From: Octopus vulgaris
Taxonomy: Eukaryota
DNA: 64,000 nucleotides
Reading direction: 5' to 3'
Assembly: GCA_951406725.2 (NCBI GenBank)
Contig: OX597831.1
Span: 65,100,001-65,164,000, forward strand
Shown one piece after another: positions 1,663 through 36,400 of the stretch. The translations under genes and the position numbers were made by a program. Under the pieces are notes generated by a model that was not told where the DNA came from, ran no database searches, and was given only the letters and a program-made list of their open reading frames with translations. Position 1 is the first letter of the stretch. Each line of letters opens with the position of its first letter.

Positions 1663-1795
1663 CTACAACACTACTGTCTATTCGACTTTGTCTACAATGC
1701 TACTGTCAATTCTTCTGCCTAACACTTGAAGATAACAGTTAATGAATAGCTATTGTTTGATTCTGTAATAAATGTTGATTTTCTTTAACCTACAG

Positions 1796-1948
1796 ATGCT
1801 GGAGAGTATGACCATACATCCTCGACCTACCCGTGCTGAAGCAGGAGATGTCGCTAATTCTGTCTTAGATGGCATTGATTGTGTTATGTTGTCATCTGAA
1901 ACTGCTAAAGGAAAATATGTAATACAAAGCATCAAAACTTTAGTGCAG
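1796..1948 (+). CDS. PK paralog exon: [51 protein letters not shown]
   Basis: tacag/gtaagg junctions; PTRAE motif. Confidence 0.93.
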
Positions 1949-4351
1949 GTAAGGCTACAAGGTTATACTGCAATAATTTTATAGCTTAAAAGATAGTAAT
2001 TTATTGTACTACTAATCTACTCCTTTGAGAACTCTAAATGCAGCTAACATCATTGTCATCATCATCATCATCATCGTTTAACGTCCATTTTCCATGCTAG
2101 CATGGGTTGGACGGTTCGACTGGGATCTGGGAAGCCAGGAGGCTGCACCAGGCCCAGTCTGATCTGGCAGTGTTTCTACAGCTGGATGCCCTTCCTAATG
2201 TCAACCACTCCATGAGTGTAGTGGGTGCTTTTTACGTGCCACCGGCACAGGTGCCAGGTGAGGCTGGCAACGGCCACGATCGGTTGGTGCTTTTTACATG
2301 CCACCGGCATGGAAGCCAGTCAAGGCGGCACTGGTAAAGAAAACCCTCAACCTAAAACTCTCATGTATTCCATTAATTCCTTCTCTAATATAAGCACCAG
2401 AGGAACAATCTACTTGGCAAATTTCTCTTTCTTCTTGGCTATACTAAGAGATATATATCAAGGCGGCGAGCTGGCAGAAACGTTAGCATGCCGGGCGAAA
2501 TGCTTAGCGGTATTTCGTCTGCCATTATGTTCTGAGTTCAAATTCCGCCGAGGTCGACTTTGCCTTTCATCCTTTCGGGGTCGATAAATTAAGTACCAGT
2601 TGTGCACTGGGGTCGATGTAATCGACTTAATCCGTTTGTCTGTCCTTGTTTGTCCCCTCTATGTTTAGCCCCTTGTGGACAATAAAGAAATAAGAGATTT
2701 ATATCAAACAGTAGTTGCAAATATCCTCAAAATCTTTGCAAGAAGTTTAACTGTCTACTCTGGTAGTGCAGTTGTGTTGTCGACAGAACCATTCAGTCAC
2801 TTTATCTTTCCTTCTTTTGCTGTGTGTCTGATTAGCTTACAGCTATTAATACTGCAGCGATTACATGTACATGGCAAAAAGTAAGAGGTAAACTTTTCAC
2901 ACTTCACTTTATCCATGCAACTATTGCTCTTAAGAAAAGTAAAAACATCACATAGATCAATTCTCTCTTAACCCTTTTGATGTCAACCTGCCCAAGGCCA
3001 CCACTCTTGAGTTCTATAACACAAACATTTTGCTTTAAAACCTTCCATCAAAATTTAATGTTTATTTATGTTCCAAACACTAACTTAATGATAACATTTT
3101 ATTTTACTAAATTCTTTATTATTTTCAACATAAATTGAACAAAGAGTGTTTTAATAGAAATATGATAACAAAAGCATTAAAATGTAGAGTCTTTATGTTT
3201 AGTCAAAATGAAACAAAATTATAAGGTGATCTTGATTCCAAATCTTTTCTAAAAATTCTGTGTTTTAAAACGTCTGAAGTCAAACTAAAAAGTAGATGTT
3301 AGTGATGGTTTTAATAAATTCCATATTTTACTGTGGATTAACCACAAAGAATTGTGTTTTGACTTAGCACTTCTAACAGTGTGTAAAAAAAAATAGGTAA
3401 TGAATGGTGAGCCAAAAAATAAAGTTAGCATGCTCCAGTGGGTGTGTAATATTATCGTGCATGAATGCCTGAGTACAAATGAGAAAGGATTCAGACCATG
3501 ACAAGCCTTCCAGTTCATACCAGCATGGAAGGTGGACTTAAAATGATTATGACAATTAACCCTAGTAGTACACACCCTGGTGCATTGTATCAGACTAAAG
3601 AAGTTATTAATGCTACAGTTATTTATGTGTGTATATGTGCTGTTGTGTTTGAACTAAGTGTGAGAGATAGTGTTTATAGATCATTTAACATATAAGTAAG
3701 ATAGACTGTGTTGATTACAGCTTGCTGTTTTAACAATCTGTTTTAACAATCTGTGTCCTTCACATATCAAGATGGTTTTTGTTTTTTGTTTGAGTATTTG
3801 AATAGCCAAACAGTCAATAATGACAGCAGGTGTTTTAACTAAACTTTGTGATAATTACATTTTGGTCTGTATACATGAATATTTGATTTTTCAAATTGGT
3901 GGTATTGTTGAAAAATCTACATGGTGAAAGTTACTACTGAGAATATGATGATGTAAATAAAAATGCCAGAATAACAGGAAAATAACTGGAAAATAAGAAA
4001 ATCATATTTCTCACTCCACAAATATTATTTTGCTTGAAATACTATACTCTACGTTGTTTTAACATTTCAATTGCTATTTTAATTTTTTCCCACACATCTC
4101 TGTTATTTGGTCTGTTCTATTTGTCTATATTTTCCTAATCAAAAGCATTCATCCTAGTGAAATCAACACATCAGGAAATCTACCCTAAATATTCTTGGAA
4201 AGTTTCATACCACCTTACTCTAATGCAGTGTTTCTCAACCTTTTTACCCTAGCGTAACCCTTAAAATAAATTACATGTCTCAAGGAACCCTTGTACAAAA
4301 AAAAATGATATACCATATCTTTCATATTTTTTCTTCGTAGTTCATGCGGTA

Positions 4352-4388
<37 letters not shown>

Positions 4389-6511
4389 TTATATATATGT
4401 ATGGCGCTGGCAACGGCAACATCCGAACGTAGCCGTTGCCAGCACCGCCCCAACTGGCCTCGTGCCAGTGGCACATAAAAAGCACCATCCGTTTGTGGCC
4501 ATTGCCAGCCTCGCCTGGCCCCCGTGCCGGTGGCACATAAAAAGCACCATCTGATCGTGGCCGTTTGCCAGACTCGTCTGGCACCTGTGCCAGTGGCACG
4601 TAAAAAGCACCCACTACACTCATGGAGTGGTTGGCGTTAGGAAGGGCATCCACCTGTAGAAACACTGCCAGATCAGACTGGGCCTGGTGCAGCCTTCTGG
4701 CTTCCCAGACCCCAGTTGAACCGTCCAACCCATGCTAGCATGGAAAGCGGATGCTAAACGATGATGATGATATATATTTATTTAATATTATAATATTACA
4801 TTAATCAATAATATGTTGTGCATGTATAGTAATATTACGATCATGAAATTAGCATTAGCTTATCTCACACTTTCTCGGGGAACCCCTAGGAATGTATTGC
4901 GGAACCCTAGGGTTCCGTGGAACCCCGGTTGGGAAATGCTGCTCTAATGAAAAACTCTGTGAAAACTGGACTTTCATCATGACATCAAACAAGTTTCAAA
5001 CTGATGTGGGACAAATAAAAAAAATGTCTTTAATAATTATTTCTTTTTGTGAATTGCTTTGCAGATCTGTCGTGAAGCTGAAGGGGCTATGTTCGCTTAC
5101 CAATTTATGAAAGATTTGAGCACAATCAGTGATTTTTGTTTGAGCAAAGAGGAGGCCACAGCTCTTGCAGCCGTGAAGGGAGCAATCAGCTGTGAAGCAA
5201 AAGCTATTGTAGTAGTAACTTCTTCAGGAAAGTAAGTAACTGTTTCTACTGGCTTGGAAACAAAATTTGCTTAGTGGGTGCAAACCCAGGGTCAAAATTT
5301 TTTACAAGCAAGGTCTTATTGTTTGTTTTTTACTTATTTTTATTCTTTGATTTTTTAAAATTTTTTTGGAGAAGAAAACTAATTTCAAGCTACTTTTTGT
5401 GCACTGTTTTCTAAACCTGAGAAAAGTAAGTAGGGGTGCAAATTTTGATTTTGTACCCACCAGGAACTTTAGGTGTACTTTCACCCCATATTCCCAAGCC
5501 CATAGCTGTTTTTTATTCCTTTTTCTATTTCTGTTTAATGAGTTCAACATTAGTACAAAGGAAAGGGTATAGTAGGAAAGGGTATAGTGTAGTTGATTAA
5601 ATCAACTCTGGTACTTTATTTTATTAACCCTGGAAGGGTTAATAAAAGCAAATTTGATTTTCACAAGATTTGAACTCAGAATGTAAAGAGTAGTAATTTA
5701 GATACTGTAAAGCAATTTATTCAACACTAACCATTCCACCATTCACAAATAAGTTGGATGGGTTACAAAAGTAAGATCCATAAAAGTCTTTGAAGATATC
5801 TACTATCATTCTAATATGAAATGGAATTAATAATTTGTCTTCTAATCAAATGAAGTTGAGATGAGTTATGTATTTTTTATTAAGTGTTTCAGTGTTTGTA
5901 GCATATGAAGCAAGTGATTCTCTCAAACCCCACAAACTTACTCTGCACTTTTACATAATGAGGCCTGCAATTACAAGGATTGCAAATCAAAAAAGTTCAT
6001 AATAAATGTTCCAACCTCGTGTAAATGGCTGATCAGTCTTTAGATGGTGGTGGTCGTTATTGAGCCTCGTACATACATAATGGAACGACAAACAGAATGG
6101 TTGGCATGTAAGGGCTATGGTCTTCTGTGCTGTGTTCCTATCCGCTAGCTGGCCTGAAGCCTAAGATAGAGCCAGTCAAGTTGCGTCCTCATAGCTTGCG
6201 TGTCTATGCAGAAAAGAAGAGATGAGGTCACGTGCTGAACCTCAATGTTGTGTAGCGCCCTCTCTCTGTATAGCCAGCTTGTTTACCCGCTGTCAAGGGT
6301 GGTAATGCACCTACAAGTCCGTACTCACTTTAATTGCAATATAATAGGCACAGGAGTGGCTGTGTGGTAAGTAGCTTGCTTACCAACCACATGGTTCCGG
6401 GTTCAGTCCCACTGCGTGACATCTTGGGCAAGTGTCTTCTACTATATCCTCGGGCCGACCAAACCCTTGAGAGTGGATTTGGTAGACAGAAACTGAAAGA
6501 AGCCCATCGAA

Positions 6512-6551
<40 letters not shown>

Positions 6552-7153
6552 TTTGTGTGTCTGTGTTTGTCCCCCTAGCATTGCTTGACAACCAATGCTG
6601 GTGTGTTTATGTCCCCGTCACTTAGCAGTTCAGCAAAAGAGACCAATAGAATAAGCACTGGGTTTACAAAGAATAAGTGCTGGGGTCGAGTTGCTCGATT
6701 AAAGGCGGTGCTCCAGCATGGCCGCAGTCAAAGGACTGAAACAAGTAAAAGAGAGTAAAGAAGGTATAATCCCCAGACAGAATCAGCATCACACAGCTTG
6801 CATTTTGTGTTAGAAGTTCAGTCCATCACCCCAGGCCCAAGGTTATGGCAGAAGAGAACTTACCCAGAGTGTCACAGCAACATTGAGTCTGTGACCTAAT
6901 GATTGCAAGGAAAACTTAATTGTTTAACAATATCTTTACTGGCATAAATGTTTGATATAATGAATATGTGTTGGGCTTGATAGGCGCAGGAGTGGCTGTG
7001 TGGTAAGTAGCTTGCTTACCAACCACATGGTTCCAGGTTCAGTCCCACTGCATGGCATCTTGGGCAAGTGTCTTCTGCCATAGCCCCGGGCCGACCAATG
7101 CCTTGTGAGTGGATTTGGTAGACGGAAACTGAAAGAAGCCTGTCGTATATATG

Positions 7154-7192
<39 letters not shown>

Positions 7193-9787
7193 TTGTGTGT
7201 CTGTGTTTGTCCCCCTAGCATTGCTTGACATCCGATGCTGGTGTGTTTACGTCACCGTCACTTAGCGGTTCAGCAAAAGAGACCGATAGAATAAGTACTG
7301 GGCTTACAAAGAATAAGTCCTTGGGTCGATTTGTTCGACTAAAGGCGGTGCTCCAGCATGGTCGCAGTCAAATGACTGAAACAAGTAAAAGAGTATATGT
7401 ATGTATATTGTATTTAGCAATGATTTAATGGACTTAGGAATGTATGATTTGCATCAACCAGATATCAGCAGTCTTAAGTTCATACAAATTTGATGAAGTA
7501 GTGAAATGTGAGTATGCTTACAATTGCATTTTAAGGGAAAACCGAAGAAACTGACACTTTTTTCACCATTTTTTGCAGAAATTTAAAACAAAATTACAAA
7601 AAAAAATTTATTAATTTAGTCAACACAAATGTTACAAGTTTTTAACATTTGCATTTGAAACAAAACATATGAAGATACAGTAGCAAATAATGAAGTCCTA
7701 GTGGCAAGTTTCAGATTTTGGCACAAGGCCAGTAATTTCGGGGAAGAGATTAAATTAATTATATCAATCCCAGTGCATGTTCTATCAACCCCGAAAGGAT
7801 GAAAGGCAAAGTCAACCTTGGCAGAATTTGAACACAGGACCTAAAGACTGACAAAATGCCACTAAGCATTTAGCCCAGTGTACTAACTATTCTGCCAAAC
7901 TTTTTAATTATTAACAATGAGTTCAGTACCTTAATTGCTCCATTGTTGTACATAGCATTGAAAACAGAGTTCTTTATACTAAATTACAACAAAAATTATA
8001 TAACTATGTATTACAAAATTCATTTCGTGGATTATAATCTTTGACATGACTAAATTGAGCAATTGATAATATTTAAGTGTAATGTTACATGGACATTTTA
8101 CATATCAATTTACAGATCTGCTGCTCTCATCTCTCGTTATCGACCACGTTGCATAGTGATTGCAGTCACAAGGTCACCAATCACAGCAAGGCAGCTCCAT
8201 CTCTATCGTGGAGTTCTTCCAGTCATTGACCAAAGTAAGATATCTATATTTTATTTTGAAACTTAAAATCATATTACAGTCATTGAGTATTTCTTCTATG
8301 AAAATAGTCCCTCTGAACGATCCTTTTTTAAATTACTTTATAAATCAATGTAAACAATTCTGCTTCCCAGAGATTAATCTTTTAATGTCCTATGTTTTTC
8401 ATATGCAAAAATTCTTATAACATTGATCAGTAAACAGTTTATACTTCTCAATCTGGTATAAAAAAATATTTTTACATTGGAAATTTAAAGAAAATTCAAA
8501 GAGAATTTGGAAAGGAAATAAAATGTTATTGCTATGAATGATATAAAACAAATCCAAGCACCCAGACTTTGGTGATACAAAAGTGCAAGCCACAATTCCA
8601 TTAACCTAAATACTGATCTACCAACCATTATTTCATTATCTCACATACTGCAACGTTGGCCATAGTTCCTTTAGCCTATCATACTGCAGTGTTAGCCTAC
8701 ATAATGTCATGTTATCCATAGTTCCATTAGCCCGGTTACTGGAATGTTAGCCATAGTTCTATTAACCCACAAGTTGAATTGTTGGGCAGAATCTCATACT
8801 GAAACACTAGTCATAATTCCTTTAGCACAGATACTGCAGCCATAGGTGTGTTGCTAACAATTCTGCTCCACAACCATCTGGCTTTGGGTTCAGTTCCTCT
8901 GTGCACCACCACTTTGGGCATGTACCTTTTACTATAACCCTAGGCAGACCAAACCTTTATGAATATATTTGTTAGGTAGAAACTGGAAAGAAGCCTGTCG
9001 TTTATATATGACAGTTGACAAATGAAAGCAAGTGATACTCAGTACATTTGGCAGGAGTTACATATATTATTTAATGACAGTCTAACTCAGCTCCATGGAA
9101 ACTGATATTTCATAGGCTTGTAGATCAAACAACTCATCAGGAATCTAGAGAGAGAGAGAGAGTAATAGAATATAAGACAAATTTAAGATGGCTAAAAATT
9201 AGAAGCCATCTTGAATTATGGCCAGCACTGTATATAGGTCACAGTATTGGCCATAATTCCATTACCCTATACATTTACACTGGACATTATCCCATTAGCC
9301 AATATACATATACACATACCTTTAAATACACACACACACAATGGGCTTCTTTCCATTTCTATCTACCAAAACGTCCATTTTGGAGTTATGGTAAAATAAA
9401 CTTACTCTCAGTGTAGCATAGTGAGTCTGATTACAAACCGTTGTTGCAAAGTAAACTTCATTAGTCCACATTCTGCAGTTTGTGGTCATAATTCCATGGT
9501 TGTTCATATCGCCATTAACTTAAATATTAAACCATTTCCCCTCATTAACCGACACGCTAATAGTCGTTTTTAACATTTTACCTGCAGGCCCAGTTACTGG
9601 TTTTTGGGAAAAAGATTACAACTTAGGAATCAAGAAAGCCTTTGAGAATGCAGTGGAAAGAGGATTCTTGAAAGTCAAAGACCGAGTTATGCTGGTGCGT
9701 GGTTGGACTGAAGGCAGTGGTTCCACTGATACGATGTGTGTGGCTACAGTGCCCGGTGAAAATGATCCGCTTCCGATGACATATTAG
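1796..9787 (+). CDS. Divergent pyruvate kinase paralog, 3' part: join(1796-1948,5065-5231,8116-8234,9588-9787); 5' exons lie upstream of the window
   Basis: Exon lengths 153/167/119 and phases identical to the minus-strand PK; GT-AG introns; no stops; AATAAA at 9968-9973. Confidence 0.9.
2057..2335 (-). mobile_element. Abundant (GAT)n-tailed retroposon family 3; copies at about 4400-4771, 13843-14201, 19055-19335, 40574-40990, 44040-44220, 49609-49785, 59215-59465, 62325-62495
   Basis: Shared catcatcatcgtttaacgtcc...catgctagcatgggttggacgg...ctggatgcccttcctaa. Confidence 0.8.
2462..2693 (+). mobile_element. tRNA-derived SINE family 2; other copies at 10827-11056 (-) and 26993-27222 (-), partial copies at about 7700-7880 and 5590-5740
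   Basis: ggcggcgagctggcagaa...gagttcaaattcc box A/B-like head; core gcctttcatcctttcggggtcgataaattaagtacc. Confidence 0.8.
4226..4941. mobile_element. Non-autonomous hAT (Charlie-like) element with a nested retroposon (about 4400-4771)
   Basis: TIRs CAGTGTTTCTCAACC / GGTTGGGAAATGCTG; perfect 8-bp TSD ctctaatg. Confidence 0.8.
5065..5231 (+). CDS. PK paralog exon: [56 protein letters not shown]
   Basis: ttgcag/gtaagt junctions, 167 nt; [15 protein letters not shown] pattern. Confidence 0.9.
6347..6760 (+). mobile_element. tRNA-derived SINE family 1 with internal (TA)n/(TG)n
   Basis: Head ggcgcaggagtggctgtgtggtaag...ggttcagtccc; at least six near-identical copies in the window. Confidence 0.85.
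6983..7394 (+). mobile_element. SINE family 1
   Basis: Near-identical to 6347-6760. Confidence 0.85.
8116..8234 (+). CDS. PK paralog exon: [39 protein letters not shown]
   Basis: tttacag/gtaaga junctions, 119 nt; [18 protein letters not shown]. Confidence 0.93.
8598..8845. repeat. Decayed minisatellite (about 36-38-bp unit), continuing at about 9240-9300 and 9460-9550
   Basis: Recurring catactg..gttagccatagttcc(a/t)ttagcc. Confidence 0.6.
9588..9787 (+). CDS. PK paralog terminal exon: (S)[65 protein letters not shown]
   Basis: cctgcag acceptor, phase 1; GWxxGSGxT motif; TAG at 9785-9787. Confidence 0.88.
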
Positions 9788-15937: not shown

Positions 15938-16268
15938 CTAGCTATTTGTCAGAAATAAATATTTGCTTTGAGAAAACTAAAAATCAAATAAACATGTTCT
16001 GTACAATTTTATATTCTTTTAGTTTCTATAGACAATGTAATTTATAAATTTTTTTAAAAACTATCCAAGAATCATGTAATTTTTAGTAGGTGGATTTTTC
16101 AAAAATGGAAGAAAAAAAAAATCCAATAATTTTATTTAAGATACTTTATTTCTAAACATACTTTGGCAGAAAAATACAACCTGATATATAAATATTGTTT
16201 ATTGATTTTAAATAAATGAAAAAAATTAGCAATAAATTAGACATTTTAAAATCATTTCCTCTATCTAT

Positions 16269-16504
16269 TTAAAATCCAAGTGTATTTTTTGGTAGGGGCT
16301 TAAAACCAGCAATAGGAGGCATCTCTCCAGAAATAGCTGGACATGCTAGAACCCTTACAGTGTCATTACATTCATTGTTATGACGAACACCACTCATGAT
16401 CACCAAATGATCGCCTTTCTTTATTGTCTTTAATTGTAAGCCAATTCCTATTCCACGATAAATCCTCCTATCCAAATCCACCATAGGATCATCTGCAGCA
16501 GCCT
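16269..16504 (-). CDS. PKM: Putative alternative PK terminal exon B: EAAADDPMVDLDRRIYRGIGIGLQLKTIKKGDHLVIMSGVRHNNECNDTVRVLACPAISGEMPPIAGFKPLPKNTLGF*
   Basis: Acceptor tttttattattgtag, same phase and same first bases (AG) as exon A; aligns to exon A without gaps for 56 aa; intact ORF; AATAAA on - at 16145-16150 and 16131-16136. Confidence 0.75.
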
Positions 16505-19500
16505 CTACAATAATAAAAATCAAATTTTTAATTTTAAAAATAATTAGATCTTTGGAAATACATTCTTAATTCATTTTAATTCTGTCACAATGTCATTTCA
16601 CAAATTCTTCAGAATCCATATAAATAGATTCTACTTTTGTAATTTTTTTTTAACACAAAATTTGTTTACTAAATGTTGAATAAAAACTAAAATCTTTTGA
16701 TATGATTTTCCATTTTTTTTTTTTTTTTTTACCTAATGTAAATACGATTTTGCTACAGAAGTCTATAAACAAATTTATTGAGCTTAACATATAACTACAA
16801 TCAGTGATTAAAAGACATTGCTTTATAAGGCACCAAATTAAAAATTGCTGTAGTCAAGTTTTATAAGAAAAAAAAAAAAAGGCATGTAACAACTTAATAA
16901 ATTTTACATATCAGAGCAGTAAGACTGATTGAGATAGACCATATTCTATACAGTACATGTTAATGCTTTTCTTTGCTCAAATAAAACAAAAAACTAACAG
17001 CAACACTTATTGATTACAGAAGATTGCTTTGTCCAATGATTTTCACCTTATAACAATTTTTTTTAGTCTGTCATTGAGAGTACAAATGTTAACTTAAAAC
17101 CATCTAAGCATGAAAATTAAGATTATACTTTTCAGGAATTAAATGTCATTTCATATGTATTAGAAGAATTCATTTTCCTATCTTAAAATTTTGATTAACA
17201 ATCATTAATCTTAAGACAGTATATAAGTGGTCAATTTTATAGTCAATGGCAGTAACCCTGTCCAATACTGTAAAGAAGCTGTCTTTGTAGAAGGTAACAT
17301 AAGGTCTTCAAAATCATCAAGGAACAAAATAAAGTCATTTTTTTTTTTCTCTAATTTGATATAACTTATATTTAAATATATCAAGGTTAATCATTTGTTG
17401 AAGTATATTGACAGTAAAATAAATTAAAACATTAAAAAGGTGGAAAGTACTACATAAAAAATTTTACATGGTAACATAATACACATGTCAGCTCAAGCAG
17501 CAAAATAGTGACATAAGAGGAACAGGAGAATAACAACCTAACGATACATCAGTCTTAGACAAATTAGATCTTTATAAAAAGGGATTCTTCCTGTAAAAAG
17601 TCCATACCAAATTATATGCATATCAATCTATTTCTCTACTACACCCTTTGGAATTTCTGTTCATAATTTTATTTTTTTCTTCTTAGAACCACTTTTGGTT
17701 TCATTCGTGCCAAGTAGAAAGCTGCTTACTCATAAATATGCTTGCATATAATATATACATGTATACATACACACACAAATCTTAAGTGAATTATATGCAG
17801 AAGTAAACTACCTGAAGTAGTTCTCCAAAAACCACTGAAAGATAAATATAAAAACCAACAAGAACAAGACTAGAAAAAAATAGAAAAGATCCAAGTAAAC
17901 CAGTTTTCTCATAAGAAAATAATGCAACACTTCAATAAGTCTACTGATTGGATGATAACCAACTGTTTATGCAAAATCCAATTAGTAAATGCCCTTGAAA
18001 GAATAAATTCTGAGCTTTTACTAGAGACTGAACCAAGTGTTAACAGGAAAAAAAAAGCTACCAAGGAGTATGGTTCTATAGAGACAGCCACTTAGTATTG
18101 TACTAGGTGAACTTTTCCTTTGAAATTCACATATCTTGATTATGAAACAAAAGTAATAGGTTAGTCTGACTACAAATATTATTCTTAACTATTTCATTTG
18201 TTCTTCATATATGTACTTAATAAGGAGAAAAGTTAAAATTGCTATTCAACTGCACTTTGAAGAAGAGTAAATAAAAATAACTTCAGAAGAGTTTTTGGTA
18301 CAATAACCACCAAAGCTAAATTCTTTTGAAAGGCTCAGTTTTCGAATTTTTGTAATATTGTGTCTGTATCAAACAAAAATAAAAGTTTATTAACTACATA
18401 CAGAATGGAGGTAAGCAAAGACTACAATTAAATTCACCCTAAAAAGTATTAGCATCATCACTTATTTACTACTTTAAAAATATATAAATAAAATACATGT
18501 AATTTTAAAAACAAACATTCTCAATAACTTGTCCAGCCTTTCTACTTCACACCACTTTCATTAAAATGTAAAGCCCTTTCAGTTCTCAAATGAAGAGGCA
18601 AAGAACAAACCACCACTAATGAAACTATTTTCTATCAAAGTCACCGTGTTTTCAGTGTTATAGCTTGAACAATTCTGAAAATGCCATTTCCCAATTTTAC
18701 ATTAACTTACTTTTCTGCTTATTTAACATCAACAATTATTATTATTACTACTATATATGTACACACACACCTGCACATGTGTATTTATATACACACCTGT
18801 GTGGATTACCTTATTCTAGATCCTCACTTAACATGTTCCAAACACCTTTTCAATGAATTCAGCCTAGTTTATTATCATAGAAAGTACCTAATTGAATATA
18901 CTAAAATGGAACTTGTATAGTTAAAGTTCTTTAAAACAATATTGTGTATGTTACAAGATGAAATATTAGTTCACTCATACTTTAAGAATGTGCCTAGCTC
19001 CAACAAGAGTCTACAAGCAACAGCAAAAGCTCAGTTAGAGACATTTTCAATAACATCATCATCATCATCGTTTAACGTCTGCTTTCCATGCTAGCATGGG
19101 TTGGACGGTTTTGACTGAGGGCTGGCAACCAGATGGCTGCACCAGACTCCAGTCTTGATCTGGCAGAGTTTCTACAGCTGGATGCCCTTCCTAATGCCAA
19201 CCACTCCGAGAGTGTAGTGGGTGATTTTTACGTGCCACCTGCACAGGGGCCAGTCAGGCGGTACTGGCAATGACCTTGCTTGAATCTTTTTACACGTGCC
19301 CACCGGCACAGGTGCCAGTGAAGCGACGTTGGTAACCAACAGTACATATATATATATATGAAGATAATTAAAAATTAATGTTTATTAAATATACCTAAAA
19401 CATCAGATATGCATATATTTTAAAAAAATAACCTATAAATAATACATCTTGAAAGACCAATGCCATTAAAAAAAAAACAATTTAAGAAACATTTTGCCAC

Positions 19501-20322
19501 TGTGTCCATGTGTACTACTATCAAAGAAGGATCACCATGAAAGTAAAAATGATAGACAAATGTAAAACAATGATGAATGAGTGAAATGACTTACCAAGAG
19601 ATCCTTACAATAGGTTAGGTATAGATCCAAAACCCAGAACAGCAAAAGATATCTGGTCTTATGAAGTATAATGGAATCAAAAAGATGAGGCAACAAGCAG
19701 AACCTGCTGCATTGTTTTCATTACTTAAACCGGTTTTTCTCATGGAATACAACACTAATAATGGTAGCCATACACGTGGAGCACCAGAAATTGCATACAT
19801 TAGAAATTTTTTAAATATATTAATATTAATAATGAAATTATTGTATACAGTGCTCAGGTGCACCACAACTTGTCAGAAAGTGCATATAAAGTATTAGATT
19901 CAAGCAACAATTTTAATTTGAGAATGTTAATTTTTAGTTTCAAAAGCAATAAAGAAAGAATATTTCCTCGTCTTCAAGAAATATAAAGTAGAGAATTATA
20001 TTAACCAACAGGTAAACATGAAATAATTTACCGTTCTCGAATTCCTTTTTTAAAAGAACTCCATTTACTAACATAAAAAGCCAGAATTTCACACCTGAAG
20101 CTTCAAATTGTCATAAGATTTAATAATCCCACACTACTTTCTTACTCATTGAAAGTCAATAAATAAGAATGTCATAGGTGTATTAGTGAATTTTGAAATA
20201 CAAATACTTGTGTATATATTTCAATTAATTTTTTTTTTAATTAATTCTATAAATCTCAGCTTTTGCACAATGTACATCATAAGTAACATTTGTTAATGAA
20301 TTTCAATTGTATTATCCACACA

Positions 20323-20367
<45 letters not shown>

Positions 20368-22040
20368 TAACTATGTTGAGGAAACACCAACAGACAATTT
20401 ATATCAAGCTTAATTCTAAGTTTAGCATTCATTTTATGTAACAAATAATTGAGGTCCTAATAGCGCCACCATCCATTCCCACTAAGAAACTTACCTCCCC
20501 TTACAAAGTAAAACATCAAAGAATTTCCAAAAGACAAATAAAAAATATACACATAACAGGCATCTGCATAGTTTTTTTCTCCAGAAATTTCCCTCAGACA
20601 CTTGCCCATGGTGCAGCAAAGTGGGATCAAACCCGTTACCATATTGTTGTGAAGAGAATTTAATCTCAGTTATGCTTGCAACCATTTGTTGATGCATTTT
20701 TCCAGTCCACTATATTTACAAAAATTAAAGAAACATTTCAAATTGTTAAAATTTAATTTCTCTTTTACTGACCTAAATAGATGAAGAATAGGTTGGGAAA
20801 AGGAATGTTAGAGACAGCAGAAAATTAAAGCTTTCTGGGTAGACATTGCAGGAAAAAGACCAGTAACCAATTAGTTAACCAAAGTTAAATGTTAGCCAAA
20901 AGCACTTCCAAGCAGAAGGAGGTAGATTTTAAAATGGGATTAAAATTGTCAGTTTCAAAGAGAAAAAAAAAAACGAAATAAATAAGGGATAAATGACAAG
21001 GACGACTAAAAAAGTATTTGCACACATTTATTAACAATTTAACAAACCATTTTAGACACAAACAAATCTACAATTTATTGAAATATTGTATCTCAAAAAT
21101 GAAGATTTCATAAAACAAAGAAAAAATGTCCTAAAACATCAAAATTAAAAACTAAAACAAATAGAAAGTATTCCTACAAGAAAAATCTATGAGTTTTAAA
21201 TATATGAAATAATTAGCTCAACTTATACTTCATATTCAGGAAACGTACTACAATAAATTCTATAACTAAGATATTTTACATTAGATTTGCCAAATATATT
21301 GGGTTATATTTGTCGTATTCAATGAGTATCAACTAAAATATGAAATATTTTTTAGTTTACAAAATTACAAAGGAACCATGTAGCTCAAAATTTCAAAACT
21401 GCATTTTGAAATTTTATAAATTCTGGTCCCAGTTGAAAAAAACAAAAAAAACACAAAAAACAAATGAATCAAACAAATGAAATACTTGCAGGAGTATAAC
21501 ACATTGTAGATTTTGAGTCTTTAAACAGCTTTAAATACAAAATAATTTTGGAAGTTGAACTAATGTTATATTAGAACAAGTTATTCATGTTAACAACTGT
21601 GTTATTTTGCTTCAGATCGTTATTTTTTTCTATTAGACATGATTATTTTTTTTCAAAAATTCTTAGCAATGAAAGTTTCTTGTACAGAAATTTATGTAAA
21701 CCTTCATCTTGAAAGTAAAAACAATGAAATCACCATCGGGATTAGCATAGAAAGAAATGAAAAATTGAGAAACGAAAGCTCCAAGTATTATTATACTTAA
21801 ATATTTTAGATGTTGCTGCAGAAGTAGTCAAAAGGTATTACTAAAATCACTTAATTTTATAGTCACACTTTTCATGGAAAGGATAAGTACATGATTGTAT
21901 TTACTACAAAGTAAGTCCCTATTTAAGACAGGGTAGACATCTGTTATTCTATATAAGAAAAAAAGGTCACTAAATTGAAACAGGAGTTTAGAGTAAGTCT
22001 CTAAAGAACTGGCAACCCAGCATCATCAAAATCACATCGT

Positions 22041-22249
22041 TCAAAAGTGACTGGCCATAATAGGAGTCATTTCATCTCTGCCGGGTGCATTGATAAGTCT
22101 CAGCGTGTTAGTGAAGCCTGAACCAGATTTCCAACCAGTCACAATCACTAGAGGAACTCCCTTGAAGATAAACCCATGGTCATGCCCAGCTTCCAGAGCT
22201 CTCTGAATGCGTTTATCAACATCCTCAGTCCATTGACTGTCTCTTTTCT
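22041..22249 (-). CDS. PKM: PK terminal exon A (canonical FBP site): [69 protein letters not shown]
   Basis: Not in the ORF track; acceptor ttcctacacag, phase 1; WxEDVDxR and GWxxGSGFTNT motifs; TGA at 22043-22041. Confidence 0.93.
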
Positions 22250-24389
22250 CTGTGTAGGAAATTTAAACAGAGCATAAGACCTAGAAATGCTTACAAGTAA
22301 ATGCATTAAGTGTATTTATTTCATAAAATAATCAAATTCATGCAAATATGTATAAAACATCACACAGGCATAAGGAAAAGAAAATAATGGGCAGCACACA
22401 AAGGGTGATGCTAAACAACTGTTTAAGTAGTTGAAACAATATGATATATATAATGTTTCATTAGGTTTTTGTAATTCATCACTTTTCTTTATATTTTCAA
22501 GATTTTAAAGCAAACTTATTTTTTAAAAATCTGGACCTTTTGAAATTGAACTTAAAATTTTATGCAAGATAAATTAAGAATGAAAATAATAATCTTAACT
22601 ATAATAACAGTGATGACAATTGTTGGAATGAAACTAAATGAAGAAATTATAATTATAATTAATTGAAGAAATTATAATTTGCTTTTAGAATAGAAATTTT
22701 ACCAGGAACATGTAGGAGAAATGGAATATCCCCTTACTAATAATATTCTACAAAATAAAAATATATAACTTAAACATTTTTTAAACTGAAATCATTTATT
22801 GAAAATGTTAAAAAGAAAAAACAATGTGAAACAAATATATTACAAACTCTCAAATCAAATGATACACAGCTAATAGCATTTAAATAATATTTTCTCAAAT
22901 TCCTAAAGAATTACCGTGGAAAAAGATAAACATATATTTGGATGTATTAGAAACTGATTTAATGTAACGAAAGTAATAACTTTTCTTTTGAATGTAGCAA
23001 CATTCTACAATGATCAAAATTTAGTTTACTGAACTTGTTAACAATTGATTCAACCAGAACATTAAATGAAACCAAACTTCAAACCTTGTGGTGAAAAGGA
23101 ATTTTTCATGTTAAAGTTCACTTAAGAATGGAAATGAATTGTAATTTTGTAAAGAAATTAAATTCTAAATATATAGTAACCCTTCAACTAATATTACAAC
23201 TCAAGAGAAATGCTAAAATTATGGAGTAATTCCTACAACAAATTGGTTAACTTTTACTTGTTCAAGATTCTTTCCACATTTACTAGCCACTTCCATCATC
23301 CCCTTTACCAATATGAAACTTTATTGAAGCTCATCAATTCGTTTCACCAGCCTAGTGTTATTCAAGTTTCATCACATACCCAAGGTATCCTTACTGATCC
23401 ATGTTGCAATACAAAAAAAGTTCATGATAGGCACTAATAAAAAAAAGTGCCTTTAATGCAATTTGATATTCAAATCTTCCTTCATAAACCAACCAATATT
23501 CCAAGTTCAGACAAGCTAATAAAATACCAAGTTCCAACTAAACATTCTATATTAGGCAGACTGAGGATTCAATAACAAATTGAGTGAACTCAGGTTTTCA
23601 GCCTTCCATGGTGAGCAAGTCTTGCTTGTATAATAGAAAAATCGATATCACCAACAAATTTAATTAAGCTTGAAACTTCTAAACTCATATCTAAGGTAAC
23701 CATTTTGTCAGATCTAATGACTTTATAACAAATTAGTTTGCTTTTACTGGCTTCTAAAAGCAATCATCTTAATAGGGAAAATATCTACACTACAAATGTA
23801 TTCATAAACCTATTTGCCATTAATTAATATTTTTTTCTTAATTACTTTGGTATTTTCCCTGTTTAACAAGACGCAGTGCTTTGTTCACATGCATTTTAAC
23901 AATAAGTTCATTGTGTTAGTGGGTTCTAAAAGTAGTAGAATCTCTAAGAATAAACAAAATTATATGTGTATCTTGCATAGTTTAAGCATTCAACTAAGGG
24001 TTAACTTACCTTCATAATAAATTGGAATAATCCCTCTATACATGTGAGCCTGGCGAGCAACCTGTGCAGTTCTAGTAACAGCCAGGATTGGACAACGTGG
24101 ACGATAGGCAGAAATAAGATGAGCTGACCTAAAAAATGCAAAAAAAATATATAACAAAACTTACAACTGCTACTGATTTTCAAGACACATTTGAATGAAA
24201 AGTTATTGCAGTTCATAAATATATATAGGCGTAGGAGTGGCTGTGTGGTAAGTAGCTTGCTTACCAACCACATGGTTCCGGGTTCAGTCCCACTGCGTGG
24301 CATCTTGGGCAAGTGTCTTCTGCTATAGTCCCGGGCCGACCAATGCCTTGTGAGTGGGTTTGGTAGACGGAAACTGAAAGAAGCCTGTC

Positions 24390-27400: not shown

Positions 27401-30400
27401 CATCCAGTTATCCTCGATGTTACAAATCAGTAACTCCTCCTCCTCCTCCTCATTAAATGCTTCAGTTAGGATGTCTCTTCAAAAGAGACTGAAGCTTCCG
27501 GATAATCCTTTTCCAAATTGGCTTGCTTCTTAGAATCCTTTGTGCCTGTAGTTTGAAGTCACTAATGTGTAACCTATGCTGAAGGTGGGGTGGGGAGAGA
27601 GAAAGAGAGAGAGCCAATATATTTTCATTCATCATTCAAAGCTACAAAACTTTTTGATATTACTGACCTTCCAGTTGTTGTAATAACAATGATAGCAGCA
27701 GCATGACACTTGAATGAAGCTTCAACAGCTGCAATTGCAACGGTGTGGGTAGCATCTGTTGGAGTTGGTGTCTGACGTCTGAGTTCTTCAAACAGTTGAC
27801 TATGAAACACAGCAGATTCAGCTTCACGAGCAATCTTTGAAAAATACATAGAACAACAACAGTATTAATCATATTGGAAGATAAAAATTCTTTAAATTTA
27901 CATAACTGAGAATAATACAGTTACACTGCTAAGGTTTTCTATAATGAAAATTTTAATGTACATTAAGTCTATATTTAAAAAGGAACAAATCTGAGACTGA
28001 GGAACATGTCAAAGGAAAAAAAAGCAGTGCATCATAATATGAAGTTATTCTCAGACTAGAAACCTGCTCTGAATGTTTGCAGTAGTGTGAACCATTAAAA
28101 GATACCCAAGGGGCAGGTGATAGTTTAAACCAAGAGAAAGGTTAAGTGGAACTGCAGATATACCAACGATCATAGCTCCCGGCTCACGGCCTGTATGACA
28201 TGATATGCACTCCTCCAGCTCCTAAAAGTCTAGCACTGGCCAGATTTTATTCTTTTTCAGCCTGACTATTGCCAACATAATCTTCTTCACTTCTTTCTAT
28301 AAAATAGAAATACTCTCCTCTATCCATTTGGCCACCTTTCTCTCAAACTCATTCCTAGCCTCTCCTTTCAGGAATGTTTTCATAGCAGCTCACTGTTTCT
28401 CAACATGGAGGGTTCTTCCTTCCAAAAGTACTCCATCAGCCATTGTTTGCCATCAAACTCAGCCCAGAAGTCCTTATCTTCAACCCTTTTGTTACTGTAT
28501 TTATTTTGAGATGCTCTGTGTTTCCTTCAATTATTTTAAATATGACAAAGAATTTAGTAAAATAACTTAGTTATCATTAAGCTAGTGTTAGGAACATAAG
28601 TTGTGACTAAGGTTTCGTGGAAGATTTTAATTCAAAATCTATGAAAACAAGACATTTGTATTCAGAGCCAGAGCCGGTTTCAGTCGGGTTGGTAACGAAA
28701 GGGTTAATCTTGTTTGCAGTATTTCTTCCCCCAAGAATAGGATGCTCAAAGCATTGCTTGGTGAACTCAAGCCAGACGAATGTTATTATAACTTGAATTC
28801 GTCAGCTAAACAATTATGCCTGAACCAAAACACATGTAGACAATGAGGAAAGAATTTACTGAATGACTAAGTAGATGTAGAGAGACAAAATAATATTAAG
28901 CTTCATTATAGCAGGGGAGAGAAATTTGAAATATAAAAATTAAATAAGGCATCCATTGTGGAGCAAGTGACCGTTGTTAAGTTTGTCTTGATAGACCTCC
29001 ATGAACCATAGCCTTAGCAGTGCTTACTACATCCTAGATGACAGCAGCAAAGATTTTGAATGAATAAACAGGCTATGGATAACGTCTACAGTGACCACAA
29101 TTTACAATGTTAACCAATTTTGATAAACTCATTTTCATCATTAGCGTTTCAACATTTCTTTTCCCATGCTTGCACAAGTCACATGAGACTACATGGAGGC
29201 AGAATTTTCTATGGCTTGATGCTTGAACTATCACCGACTGTCACCCAAGTAAGGTAATATTAACCACGGTCTAACCAAACAATAAACAGCCCAGGCATGC
29301 TTCCACATAAGATTGCAAACAAATAATACCATATGTATGAAGGGTAGTGTTTTCTTTAGAATAAGCATGTACTTATCAAGATAAAGGAAATACACAGTAA
29401 CACAAACACATACATAATGGGGTTTTTTCCAGTTTCTACCTACTAAATTTCACTCACAAGCTATTAGTCAATGTGTGGCTACAGCAATGGATACCTGCCA
29501 ACAGTGTCCATACAGTTAGAGCAAATCCCAAATCATGTGGTTTTAAAGTCAACTTCTTAACCACACAGCCAGGTTAGCACCCTATAACAGCCCTGCTTGT
29601 GCCCAAAAGCGTAGCTTTAAGGGAGGAAGTTACTCTCTGACCTAGCCCAAATGTTTGCAACAAAGACAGCTGCTAAAACAAAGGTTATGTTTAACTAGGA
29701 AACAGATTATGTCTATCACCTAACATGGTTAAAAAAAAAAAATTTTTAAAAACGTACAAAATTTGGCAAATTTATTAAAATTGTAAAAAGACTAATCAAC
29801 AAAAATACTAATAACAAATCATAAAATAGCTTTGAACATTATCAATCAACACCTACTTTAGCCATCATACGAACAGCGTCCAAAGGATAGGAGCCTTTGG
29901 CAGTTTCTCCTGACAACATAACACAGTCTGCACCATCCAGAACAGCATTTGCAACATCACCAGCTTCAGCTCGAGTTGGACGTGGTTTCTTCACCATACT
30001 TTCCAACATCTGATAAAATAAATTGATCATCTCTGTGAAATGTAAGCAACCTCAATAACGAAAAAAAATAAAATATTTACTTTATATATAAGCTTTTCTA
30101 ACTTGGATGCATACACAGATCTGCCTGAATGCTTGCTACAGAGTGAACTTTGTGAAAGACCTGAATACAAGGGCTAACTGGCAGTGTTAAACCAGGTAAG
30201 AATAGAGACGGATCTCTTCAACAGGCAGCTTCCGTCAAACAAATTTCATTCACAAAGCTTTGGTTAATTCCTGGCAATAACAACCTAAAGTATTTCCTCG
30301 AAACAATATTATAATTAGAAATATTGAATTTCTAAATGTCTCAAAGAGACATGAGTGGTGGTGGAGCGATAGTGGTTGTATACTGTCAACATAACGTGAC

Positions 30401-33400
30401 AGTCCCGTAAAGGGAATAACACCACTCCTATATAGCCTTAGGAAGCATCGACGCTTCCTGTCGGCTTTGACACATTTCCTGTGTCCTTATATTTGCGAAG
30501 GATATAATCGATACTGGAACTGAAAGGCATATATTCAGTACAAATTAAATGTATCAACAATACAATTCGTTTTGATAGCAAAATAAATAACAGATATGGA
30601 ATTTTCAAAGCCTATAAAACTACACTTGGTGTGATAACTTGTGACAAATTAAGTTTAAATAGTTAACAGCTAATGTCCAAGAAAATATATAGATGTGAGC
30701 AAGAAAACAAAAATTTACTGAAACTAAATTGAAAGGCTGACAAATGTCAGGTAAAACATTTGATTTAAGAATTATCAGATAATTATAGAATTGTCTGCAT
30801 TAAGAGAAATAAACAAAAGAGACTAAATAAGCTAAAAGTAAATAAGATTGATAAAGCTGGCTGAATGAGTTTTCTAAATTGAAGATAATTTTAAGAGCTT
30901 CCTGGAGTTAAATGAACCGTTAATTGCAACTAGTATTTATTTTCTATCCCAATAGGCTGAAATATTCATCATCATTGTTCGACCATGGTCGAGACAATGG
31001 AATTTACTATGTTACGCTAGACTTCACGGTCCATCATAGCATTACGGAGGTCCTGTTTCTGAATGCCTGTATCCTGGAGATTACATCAGGGTAGGACAGT
31101 GAAATATTACATTTAATGTCTATGGAACATTCTGAACTGATGACTTTTGATCTGCAAACAAAACAATTTTAGTGGTTATATAATGAAAGACACCAAACAA
31201 TTATGTACATACATACCTGAGTGGCACAAATAACAGGTTTACCAGCTTTGTTGCATTTAGCTATCATCATCTTCTGGGCTAAAAACACTTTTTCAGGAGG
31301 AATCTCAATACCCAAATCACCACGCGCAACCATGACCCCATCAGTTTCCTTCAAAATTTCATCAAAGCTGAAACAGAAGAAATAAAATTGTCAAAGATGT
31401 TCAACAAACTGATGGGGAAGCAAAAAATTTAATTTGAAATAATTACTTTTTCACGCCTTGGTGGTTTTCAATTTTCACAAAAATTTTAATGTCTTTTCCT
31501 TTCTCTCCAAGAATTTTTCTGATTTCTCGAACACCATCAGCACTTCTTATAAAAGAAGCAAACACCATATCAACCTAAATAACAAACGAATTAAATTTTG
31601 AGAAAGTGTCAAGATTTTGTAAAATAAACCAATATTCAATATTAAATTCTGGAAGAAAAAAAAAAAAGAAAAAAAAAAAAATTACATACGTCTTGTTCTA
31701 CACCGAATAGCAAATCTTGTTTATCTTTTTCTGATACAGCAGGCAAATCAACAGGAACTCCAGGTAAATTGCAGCCTTTCTTACTACCAAGGTCACCACC
31801 ATTTTCAATTTCACAATCCATATAGTCAGAACCTACAATTTAAAGATACCAAGTTTAACCAGGGCCTACATCTCACTACCATATACAACCTTCCCTTCAC
31901 TTGGAGAGGAAGACTTTTGGTAAAAGCTCTCTGAACTTTTTTCATCCTATTTTTATTCTATCAATTACATTTTCTGTACAACCTCCTCCACTGCTAGGTT
32001 ACCTGGGTAGCAAAAATTATCTAAAACTTCCAGAAAGTCACCGGGATATTTAAGGATATCAGTTTCCCGTGTATCTGTGGTCTTTATGTCTCCCATACGT
32101 CTTCCAAGTATGAACAGTTTCTCCGTTAATCTTCCAACTATTCCACTGCACCTTTTGCGTGTCCACGGCTTGCACTGGGTATACCAAAAGGAATTTCTGC
32201 GTACACCCTTCCTATATACCAAGCCAGGCCATTTACCTGATGGGTGAAAGGTCCTCTCTGATTTTTGCTCACTAGGACCTTAGTTTTTGCTAAGTTTACT
32301 AAGATGCTTAGATTGCAAGTTCTGTTTCCACATCTGGAATTTCTTTTCTAATTCTGTTACAAATTCAGCTACAAGGGCAAGATCAGCAATATAGGCGTTG
32401 CCATGGGCTTCCAATCTTAAATTCCTCTGTTATGGCCTAGAGGAAGATGAATAGGAGGGGGCTGAGAACTGACCCTTGGTGAACACTGACCTGTACATTA
32501 AATTCCTTAGTGTACCCATGGCCAACTCTTAACTTACTACCAGCATTCCTGTACTATAGAGCTTTCACAAGCCATTCATCTATCCCTAGCTTTCTCAAGG
32601 ACCACTATATCACAGAGTGGGGTACACTGTCAAAGGTTTTCTCTAGATCAACAAATGCCAAGTACAACAGTTTGTTCTTAACTAAATACTTCTTTTGCAG
32701 TTGCCTGACTGAGGAAAAACAAATGCAAATTAAAAAAAAATATACTTTGTTTAATGTTATCAAGCTGGAAATAAGTGCTGTTCCTATTTTGAACTGATAA
32801 GGAATAACCAGCTGTAAAAGCAGTTAATGGTCAATAGCATAGTGAGACCCTGGTAAATATAAAATCCTCCAGTGGACCAGAACAAAGGAACCAAAATCAA
32901 GTTAAAGGTTCATTGATCTTAAACCAGTGAACTTCAGAGAAACTTATGAAAATAAAATACTTCAAAGTATTCTACGAGAATAATTACCCATCAATATTTA
33001 TATGCTGATGTTAAAAACATTTGTTTTTTATTAATGTTTTGCATTCTTTTTTTTATAATTACACTCATAGTATTTCCATCTTTCTATTCTTCTCACTTTA
33101 GATATAAAAAAAAAGCCATTTTCTTTCAATGCTGATAAATGCTAATTTATTTCACCTTCAATTAACCAAACTCTTCCACAACCATTTCCCATTATATATC
33201 ATTCGTCTCTTTTCTCTATCACAGCTTTATTTTTGATCAATATATTCTAACACAAATCAATCCAATGTGTTTATGAAGATTAGAAGCACTGACAAATAAA
33301 TCTTTCAAGTTTTATGGCACTTATATAAGAAACATCAAAATAACGTTTTGTTTTTAAGAGTACTACAGATTCTTGGATTTCTAAATATGATAGAATATAA

Positions 33401-36400
33401 AAATCAAGTAAAAATATTACCCATGTTTTTAACAATAACAGAAATTAAGCCATCATCAATGTACATTCGAGATCCTACTTTCATGACTTTGGTAATGTTT
33501 TTGTAATCAACATACAAAGTATTTTCATCACAAGCCTCCATAGCACTCTCATTTGTTGTAATCTTTATTTTTGCTCCCGTTTTCAAAGACACTTCAGCTG
33601 AGGGACCCTGAAAACAATTTTAAGTCATTAATAAGTATTTAAAAACATCAAAACAATCATCAATGAAAAACAAAACTGTATATACTTTCATTATCTATAG
33701 TCAATATTTACAACTAATATTCTGAAAATATCTGAGAAATTTAAGTATTCATCAAGTGATAAGGAACTTAATCAAGGGACATTCAAACATCATAAGTGGA
33801 AAGTGTAACCTCTCGAAAGAGCTGTTCTTCACTCCTGCTCCAGAGCATGGGCTGCGGGGTCACTCCGCAAAGGTCTATCTACAACGATTTCATCTCAATC
33901 GAAGGAGAGGGGCTTTCTCCGTCCGGGTTGTGGATTCGTGGAATAAGCTGCCGGACGAGATAGTGAAGATGCCGACGACCGCTCGGTTCAAAGTCTCTCT
34001 TGACCAGAAATGGCCTGAACTCTTTGTATGACCACCCTCCCTGTACATAACTCCCTGTACCCCTACATGGCTTTTGCTTTTTGAGCCAATAAAAATTGAA
34101 TTGAATTGAAAAAAAAAAAAATTAAAATAAATCAAAACTACCTGCTCACATTCCTGATGGAAAAGGCAGAATCCTAGATTTTCCAACTATGCTAAACTGG
34201 AAATAACGTTGTTAGATAGTTTTTTTTTTTTCGTTCTTTTTTTTTCAAAATATTAGAGAATTAATTATGGTATATGCAAAATTCTTAATATAATAGCTAC
34301 CTAATGCAGTAAATGTCAATTCAGATTTAGGCTATAACTACATACCCAGTAGGGCATGTAGTTATAGCCACTCACTACCTTAAGAGCATGCTATCATAAG
34401 AGCTACTGATAGTTTCATGCTTTTATGTAACCTTAAATAGGCATATTTATAAAACACACCATGTCAGGCTCAGTTTATGTGTTAAATATATTTTAAAAAA
34501 TTAGGGCACTGGACAGGGAGAAAATAAGAAAAACATGAAGGCTGATGCAAAAAGATGGAACAAGAAGAAAGAAAGAAAGAAAACTAAGTTCCCCATCCTC
34601 TCTAATTGCAGAAACCACAATGCGGCTGGTACAGAACAAATAACAGAAAATATGTCAAAGTCTGCAAGACAGCAAATCGATCTGAAGCAGGGGTATCCTT
34701 CAGTTTGACAAGAGCACTGTATACAATAATTTCATTATTATTATTATTATAATAATCATCCGAAAAATGCCAATCAAGAATGCTTAATACTGATGCATCA
34801 GTTTCAGCAATTTCCTGTTGCCTCATCAGTTAAGCCAGCTTGCCTTTGGCCCCTTCTGGACTCGCTTCACCATTAGCATTTATGTTTTTGTCATCCAAAT
34901 AATTGGATGATTTAGCAATTTGCTAATGTGTATATATAAAATTAATGCGTGGTGTGGTGTATATTTCAGCCATGTATCCAGAATTTAATGTCTGTGGAAG
35001 GGTTAAGGGAAGAGCTATTTTTGTATCATCAGAATGTATTGTGCACACTGAAGTTTCCTCAATAATGCTGTTTGGAAGTCTTAAGATTGTTGTTTAGCCC
35101 CAAGTTAGCCCTGATCAAGCAGCTTTACGATCAAGAGCATTGTCATCATTGCTTTTTTTCATGTGTAGGGTACCTAGGCCCATGTTATGCAATGTGTCCT
35201 TTTCAAAGACAAGCATGATTTGATGGAAATTTGGTTGCTATTTCTAGCAGATAGAACAACCACAGAAATTCCCTTGTTGGTTCACAATACTCTGCAGCCT
35301 AAATAGAATGATTGATTGTGATACCTGCATGTATATTATGTCTTTTCAGACAAACACAATAACAAAATTATCAACCCATGCCAGCAAAATTATCAAACAA
35401 AATTAAACATCCTAAAAGCTGTGTTGATATGCACACCAATGATGATGGGGGCAAAAGAACCATTGCACTACAATCAAATCCACTCAACTGTCCTGCTATG
35501 GTCACGACCACATCCTACAGTAAAGCAAATGAGCCAGTAAAAGAGTATTAGGGATCACTAGACTTGTTACGAATAGTAACCAAATCCCATCAAATCACAA
35601 CCATTTTAAAGGAAAAAATGGTCACAGTGAATAGTGTAGTCCATGTACTACATCTAAAAAGGATCTTATGTGCATGACTGAAAAGGTCATGAAGATCAGA
35701 CTTTGAGGATCTTATTGAGTCTCAAAAGTCTGCAAAAACATACCAAAATAATGCAACATTAATTGCTTTCATTGGCTCAATCTCTCGGTTGTTAACCGCC
35801 TACAATAAACCAAGAAATTAATTGTCACACCAAATCAACATTGCACATTTTCACATAAGCTACTCATTTTTAATTTTCGTAAATGAAGCCTTATCAGTCC
35901 TACAAATTCGGCTGGAAAATGGTTTACATTTCTCGTGTTCTCAATAATTTTAAACTCAACTTACACCCTTGAGAAGGCCTGTTCTTATCTCGGGTCCTTT
36001 TGTATCCAGTGCAACAGCAATTATCTTCGGTTTATCAAACTTCTGGGTAGCTTCTCTCACATTCTTAATAGTTTCACCATGGTACTGAAACAAACAATTT
36101 TTAACAGTAAAATATATCTTTCCATGAAATGTAATTGTTTTACATATTAGCGTATTTATGGTGAAATTAACAGATATAAAGGGAAACATGAAGATACCTT
36201 TCCAATATTCTTATGTTTAGAAAAATAAAAAAATAAAGAGCAAAACACATTAGGAGTTAACCACTATTTTACAGACTAAAAATTAGATTCATAATATAAA
36301 AGTTCTAACTTGTAAAAACTTAAAATTATTTTATATATTTGCTTAAAAATAAAATTAGAAGAAATAGGTTTTACAAGGGATGTTCAAAAAGTAAGACTAA

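Follow-up and report, generated by a model that had tools for sequence, protein, structure and literature searches.

The pyruvate kinase (PK) gene PK1 of Octopus vulgaris lies on the minus strand of a 64,000-nucleotide stretch of contig OX597831.1 (positions 65,100,001–65,164,000; the whole stretch is called the window here, and positions are counted from its first letter). PK1 has two alternative last exons, exon A and exon B. Exon A carries PKM2-type residues of the site for fructose 1,6-bisphosphate (FBP), an activator, and several of these residues are replaced in exon B. Cephalopod isoform B is, with moderate confidence, read here as catalytically intact, unresponsive to FBP and nearer to the active state, the two isoforms being produced from one donor.

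Two last exons joined to one donor

The penultimate exon (24128–24010) ends in a phase-1 donor at 24010, before GTAAG. Acceptors of the YAG type precede both last exons: ...ACACAG before exon A (22249–22041) and ...TTGTAG before exon B (16504–16269). Both exons open with AG, which completes a Glu codon, and contain no internal stops, encoding 68 amino acids (aa) in exon A and 77 aa in exon B. The initial annotation had given these coordinates, the donor phase, the acceptors, the AG starts and the stop-free frames, and all are exact on re-reading of the sequence. It had counted two AATAAA after exon B, where three are present (16203, 16150, and 16136). Eleven common exons, all with AG..GT borders, encode a core of 491 aa that contains 7 of 7 checked motifs, all catalytic motifs included. 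The core is identical to PK of Argonauta hians at 458 of 491 positions. The predicted full proteins are 560 aa with exon A and 569 aa with exon B, both with open frames.

The joints 24010–22249 and 24010–16504 were sought in public sequencing runs. The RNA status of these runs is guessed, none being on record as RNA, and the contigs of four of them (X1, X2, X10, and X22) were compared. The joint to exon B, with canonical intron ends, is seen in two of the four (X1 and X10, from two studies and with two organism codes), and the joint to exon A in three (X1, X2, and X22). Contigs report presence only: no tissues are given, contig depth is not a measure of isoform rank, and uncovered parts are not evidence. 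In run X2, an exon B contig is present and no B joint is listed. Exon B is uncovered in run X22. In run X10, the coding part of exon A is nearly uncovered, yet a contig covers the distal 3' untranslated region (UTR) of isoform A (20963–21427), so X10 cannot be claimed as a run with B only. At least half of the exon B words are present in 20 of the 24 listed runs, of which 14, belonging to 5 studies, are guessed to be RNA; the other 4 contain next to none. A single PK gene has exons A and B as genuine alternative last exons, of the skipped terminal exon type. This was the proposal of the initial annotation, and besides the joints in the contigs, the arrangement is conserved in other cephalopods.

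The first AATAAA after exon A lies about 1 kb downstream of it (21079, followed by 21032). For exon B to be used, splicing would have to pass over exon A, and transcription would have to read through the poly(A) signals of A. Each isoform would thereby gain its own 3' UTR. AATAAA is present downstream of each last exon, and the exon B contig of run X1 passes all three nearest hexamers, although contigs cannot show transcript ends.

Exons A and B align over 56 aa without gaps, as previously noted, and 16 of the 56 residues are identical; their DNA is 42% identical over 170 nt. The local alignment scores 72, whereas shuffled sequences average 21.8, and none of 5000 shuffles reached that score. 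Judged by this alignment, the two exons are homologous, in-register tandem duplicates. In the Pfam search, the barrel exons of PK1 (PF00224) are above the cut-off. Against PK_C, exon A scores 29.8 bits, above the cut-off, and exon B 15.5 bits (E 0.019), below it. The predicted product of PK1 is a pyruvate kinase, with PF00224 and PF02887 and the catalytic motifs.

It is hardly credible that exon B is an assembly artefact or the leftover tail of a separate or neighboring PK gene. A second PK gene, PK2, does adjoin PK1, but it runs on the other strand and ends in a last exon of its own. PK2 is a divergent PK on the plus strand that ends tail-to-tail with PK1 near 9787. PK barrel exons are found at two genome loci only, PK1 and PK2, both at this locus. 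Exon B is joined to the PK1 donor not only in the contigs but also in the cephalopod proteins P0019 and P0121. The tail of a third gene was considered as well. It is ruled out because no copy of the penultimate exon or of any upstream PK exon was found between exons A and B, and because exon B has a single match in the whole genome.

Orthologues of exon B, which the initial annotation had proposed to look for, are present in other cephalopods. P0019 (Argonauta isoform X1) is a full-length protein that ends in one. Among the JGI cephalopod proteins, P0028 has an A tail and the full-length P0121 a B tail, and their cores are identical at 400 of 400 residues. P0132 is a further cephalopod exon B fragment. 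Between the window and the JGI pair, exon B is 36% identical and exon A 78%; between the window and Argonauta, exon B is 54% identical. By these comparisons, exon B evolves faster than exon A in cephalopods. A protein search with exon B alone against longer proteins gave 0 of 19 candidates. A profile of four B tails against near-length proteins gave 1 of 30, again P0132. The four matches in representative proteins were three unrelated repeat proteins and P0132, and exon B searched against the PDB gave only weak PK matches and chance haemagglutinin matches.

The fast divergence of exon B, and the absence of R489 from P0132, would fit an exon that is minor or decaying under relaxed selection, or one that acts mainly on localisation or stability, by way of its 3' UTR or its C-terminal tail, and has no allosteric role. 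Against this, all four cephalopod B exons have an open frame, hardly vary in length and share a tail pattern. Exon B is also present in the 14 runs guessed to be RNA, and the exon pair is retained across three mollusc classes. This explanation is given little probability.

The FBP site in the two tails

Residue numbers are those of PKM2, fixed by the gap-free alignment of exon A to PKM 481–531, and the residues were compared in a table of 30 rows. In the available part of PMC4383751, this stretch comprises alpha18, the FBP-activation motif (FAM, G514–T522) and beta20. Across the C-C' interface, W482, W515, and P517 are packed together in the T state, in which D487 forms bonds to W515 and R516. 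FBP captures the FAM, which releases this latch and frees the R state. The loss of R489 from PKM2 weakens FBP binding from nM to mM, as given in the accessible portion of PMC6636998.

Alpha18, the FAM and the last strand at the C-C' interface of the tetramer are all encoded by the last exon of PK1. Exon A contains W482, R489, and the canonical FAM. Exon B of the window is changed at six of these positions (W482P, W515V, G518N, G520E, F521C, and T522N) and has neither W482 nor a canonical FAM. It keeps R489, D487, and G514. The phosphate loop TTTGRS, presumably PKM2 432–437, is encoded in the shared exons. Because R489 is kept in exon B and this loop is shared, only part of the FBP site is swapped. 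The swap of the FBP site proposed in the initial annotation holds for W482 and the 514–522 motif, which are kept in A and absent from B, and does not extend to R489 and the phosphate loop.

In both octopod B tails, from the window and Argonauta, W482 is replaced by Pro and the loop reads N519-E520-x-N522-D523. W515, G518, and T522 are replaced in all four cephalopod B exons and in none of 10 bivalve and gastropod B exons. R489 is kept in three of the four cephalopod B tails. In bivalve and gastropod B tails, W482, R489, W515, G518, G520, and T522 are kept in 10 of 10. The loss of the FBP loop is special to the cephalopod B, whereas the duplication itself is probably shared with bivalves and gastropods.

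Since the glycine-rich loop and the two tryptophans are missing from octopod B, in which residue 520 is Glu, it is predicted to be FBP-insensitive and, less surely, constitutively active. Insensitivity to FBP is probable. The chance that isoform B is PKM1-like and constitutively active, shifted towards the active rather than the inactive state, is about even. In the PKM2 view, W482 and W515 latch the T state across C-C', and octopod B without both of them would have a looser latch. The substitution S531E of liver PK mimics FBP, according to the available part of PMC6588628. By alignment, L-PYK 531 is PKM2 519, and Glu520 of octopod B, beside this position, might act like an FBP mimic.

Isoform B could instead be FBP-insensitive and of low activity, T-locked or poorly tetramerising, and act as a damper that diverts phosphoenolpyruvate, alone or in A/B heterotetramers. 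The FAM, needed for the FBP-driven R state in the available part of PMC4383751, is gone in B, and the last strand at the C-C' interface differs too. However, the hydrophobic latch residues W482 and W515 are also lost, which should weaken the T state and not lock it, and the fold of the C-domain is predicted to be intact. A damper is considered unlikely.

A third possibility is that R489 and the shared loop still allow isoform B to bind a ligand, either a sugar phosphate or a new effector; N-E-x-N-D of octopods would then represent a new specificity and not a loss. R489, D487, and TTTGRS are kept, and the new loop residues are common to the window and Argonauta despite 54% exon identity. On the other hand, the two remaining cephalopod B exons do not have the octopod loop, and an acidic loop would disfavor a bisphosphate. 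This possibility is regarded as more doubtful than a damper.

The C-domain fold of isoform B looks intact in predicted structures. The AlphaFold model of P0019 (B form) keeps the C-terminal helix and both strands, with a predicted local distance difference test (pLDDT) of 82–91 for this block outside the loop, and a template modeling (TM) score of 0.86 to PKM. The helix and both strands are present also in the model of P0028 (A form), and the loop is of low confidence in each. The low pLDDT of the B loop does not count as evidence, because the A-form control shows it too. Modeling of the two forms, suggested in the initial annotation, agrees with an intact fold in both and does not discriminate between them.

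Age of the exon pair

Pairs of A and B tails on the same core, identical at 400 of 400 residues each, are found in Saccostrea echinata, Mytilus trossulus, and Pecten maximus. Five of nine mollusc clusters contain both tails (Haliotis, Littorina, Mercenaria/Ruditapes, one further gastropod, and Patella across two species) and four contain the B tail only. Both tails are seen in Mercenaria, Ruditapes, Haliotis rufescens, and Littorina. The mollusc isoforms at NCBI are automatic gene models, and the exon order is known in the window only. By these sequences, the A/B pair is not an octopus invention but an arrangement common to bivalves and gastropods. In the brachiopod Lingula, one A-like tail is present in 9 of 11 members, and the other two are truncated.

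A first tree of 45 rows under a mixture model did not resolve the placement of cephalopod B. Later trees used subsets of 25 and 30 tails (first 85–88 residues, no mixture model), with vertebrate, crustacean, and PK2 rows excluded. In the maximum likelihood tree of 30 tails, cephalopod B tails form one clade (99/98) that is sister to gastropod and bivalve B tails (82/93, not starred). By the approximately unbiased (AU) test, a duplication of their own is rejected for gastropods as well as for bivalves (p 0.0009 and 0.001). A single duplication before the split of bivalves and gastropods, and probably also before the split of cephalopods, is the probable origin of the pair. The two-tail arrangements of octopus and of bivalves and gastropods likely descend from this same ancestral duplication. 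After it, exon B would have diverged fast in cephalopods only.

Several points weigh against the main reading. The shorter side of the B joints is 28 letters, under the 31-letter bar for bridging, in runs that are only guessed to be RNA. The shorter sides of the A joints are 28, 106, and 30 letters, two of the three being similarly short, and short sides would be expected where an assembly graph forks. The FBP activation of isoform A is itself predicted from its sequence, and exon A has Ser at P517. Two residues of the hydrogen bonding in the T state, D487 and R516, persist in exon B, and FBP may still bind isoform B, in which R489 and the shared phosphate loop are kept. Glu520 and the S531E position are one residue apart, and the non-octopod cephalopod B exons have G and K in place of this Glu. 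The FAM is of low confidence in the A and B models alike, which do not separate the isoforms and drew on an alignment with many canonical tails. A separate cephalopod duplication is not rejected by the AU test (p 0.18), and the exon B profile scores are tied between bivalve A and B tails (43.1 and 41.3 bits).

Related tails show other variations. In Lingula anatina (P0110 and P0133–P0142), at least six versions of a penultimate-exon segment are joined to one last exon. This suggests that duplicated, mutually exclusive exons form an array located one exon upstream of where molluscs have their switch. In Littorina saxatilis (P0161, P0166, and P0167; W515S and N523S) and another gastropod (P0200; G520N), a drifted FBP loop is found on the A-like tail, not on B, hinting that the loop was lost in parallel, in snails from the other exon of the pair. 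The gastropod proteins P0067, P0094, P0083, and P0163 have optional short inserts just ahead of the B tail. In Mya (P0058), 6 of 7 isoforms have their FBP loop interrupted by a long insert.

Gene layout and comparison with known systems

Features of the PK1 locus in the window
Feature	Position	Strand	Remarks
PK1 first coding exon	45026..45094	-	ATG at 45094; tblastn with P0019, 100% over 23 aa; AG/GT borders
PK1 shared coding exons 2–10	27668..42768	-	All AG..GT, single open frame, motifs found; every catalytic motif and most of the TTTGRS phosphate loop
PK1 exons 2–6	42768-42624, 36652-36561, 36084-35965, 33607-33421, 31832-31690	-	
PK1 exons 7–10	31574-31447, 31367-31217, 30009-29857, 27834-27668	-	
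Penultimate exon	24010..24128	-	One phase-1 donor (24010) serves both last exons
Last exon A (proximal), coding part	22041..22249	-	Alpha18, canonical FBP-activation motif, final beta strand; 560-aa isoform
Likely 3' UTR, isoform A	21015..22040	-	Contigs over 22249-21478 and 21433-21017; AATAAA at 21079 and 21032; cleavage site inferred
Last exon B (distal), coding part	16269..16504	-	W482P, W515V, 518–523 GSGFTN to NNECND, R489 kept; 569-aa isoform
3' UTR, isoform B	15960..16268	-	End not fixed; AATAAA at 16203, 16150, and 16136; run X1 contig over 16504-15960, continuing beyond
PK2, last four exons	1793..9787	+	Second divergent PK gene, tail-to-tail with PK1; outside the switch

PK2 (window 1793–9787, plus strand; L002–L004, G000:C18:65074600-65109787) matches PK1 in exon layout and is highly diverged in sequence. 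Its motifs are changed from NFSHG to VMAYG, DTKG to DIAG, RGD to RGN, and CATQ to CASQ, and Gly occupies the R489 position. PK2 may be catalytically impaired or specialised. High-copy interspersed repeats lie in introns (window 19050–19330 and 24220–24385), with very deep, heterogeneous contig cover, and similar text recurs across the window.

A published description of the two PK tail isoforms was not found in a literature search of titles and abstract openings; older comparative biochemistry in subscription journals was outside its reach. The available part of the oyster PK paper PMC11269933 does not mention them. The isoforms are already present in the automatic annotations of several molluscs.

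Tissue and hypoxia differences of mollusc PK are usually explained by phosphorylation. If the kinetics agree, the identity of the last exon would have to be asked for, beyond phosphorylation alone. On a near-constant core, the B-tail loop is canonical in clams and snails, half-changed in the non-octopod cephalopods and fully rewritten in octopods. With this natural series, the working of the FBP loop and of the T-state latch can be tested directly.

Octopod B resembles human liver PK S531E (available part of PMC6588628) in the negative charge in the FBP loop, here E520. Unlike octopod B, S531E is an engineered single change at the adjacent position (519 equivalent) in an otherwise intact loop. 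Two tails on an identical core are seen also in the NCBI isoforms of Saccostrea echinata (X1/X5), Pecten maximus (X1/X3), and Haliotis rufescens (X9/X10). Unlike octopus B, the bivalve and gastropod B tail keeps W482, R489, and the canonical loop (10 of 10), mostly with a longer extension.

The vertebrate PKM1 and PKM2 arise from the mutually exclusive duplicated exons 9 and 10. Similar to that case, octopus PK1 is one gene with duplicated homologous exons and an identical catalytic core, and its swapped segment is at the C-C' interface and is predicted to alter the control by FBP. Unlike PKM1/PKM2, PK1 swaps the terminal exon (alpha18, FAM, and last strand, aligning to PKM 481–531) and not the internal alpha14/alpha15 exon, which is single-copy in PK1 (27834–27668). 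Which exon is used also sets the stop codon and, probably, the 3' UTR. Exon B of octopus replaces the FBP loop itself, while PKM1 keeps it, as seen in the alignment of rabbit muscle PK. The initial annotation's analogue of PKM1/M2 using a different exon stands as to the terminal exon and the identical core, though the pair is shared with bivalves and gastropods and is not cephalopod-specific. It can be tentatively speculated that molluscs independently evolved a PKM1/M2-like last-exon switch, in which cephalopods made an acidic mimic loop and removed the latch, giving a PK on an identical core that is constitutively active, selected by tissue and equipped with a separate 3' UTR. If kinetics bear this out, it would be a second, independent animal case of tuning PK allostery by duplicated exons, at a different structural element from that of PKM1/M2.

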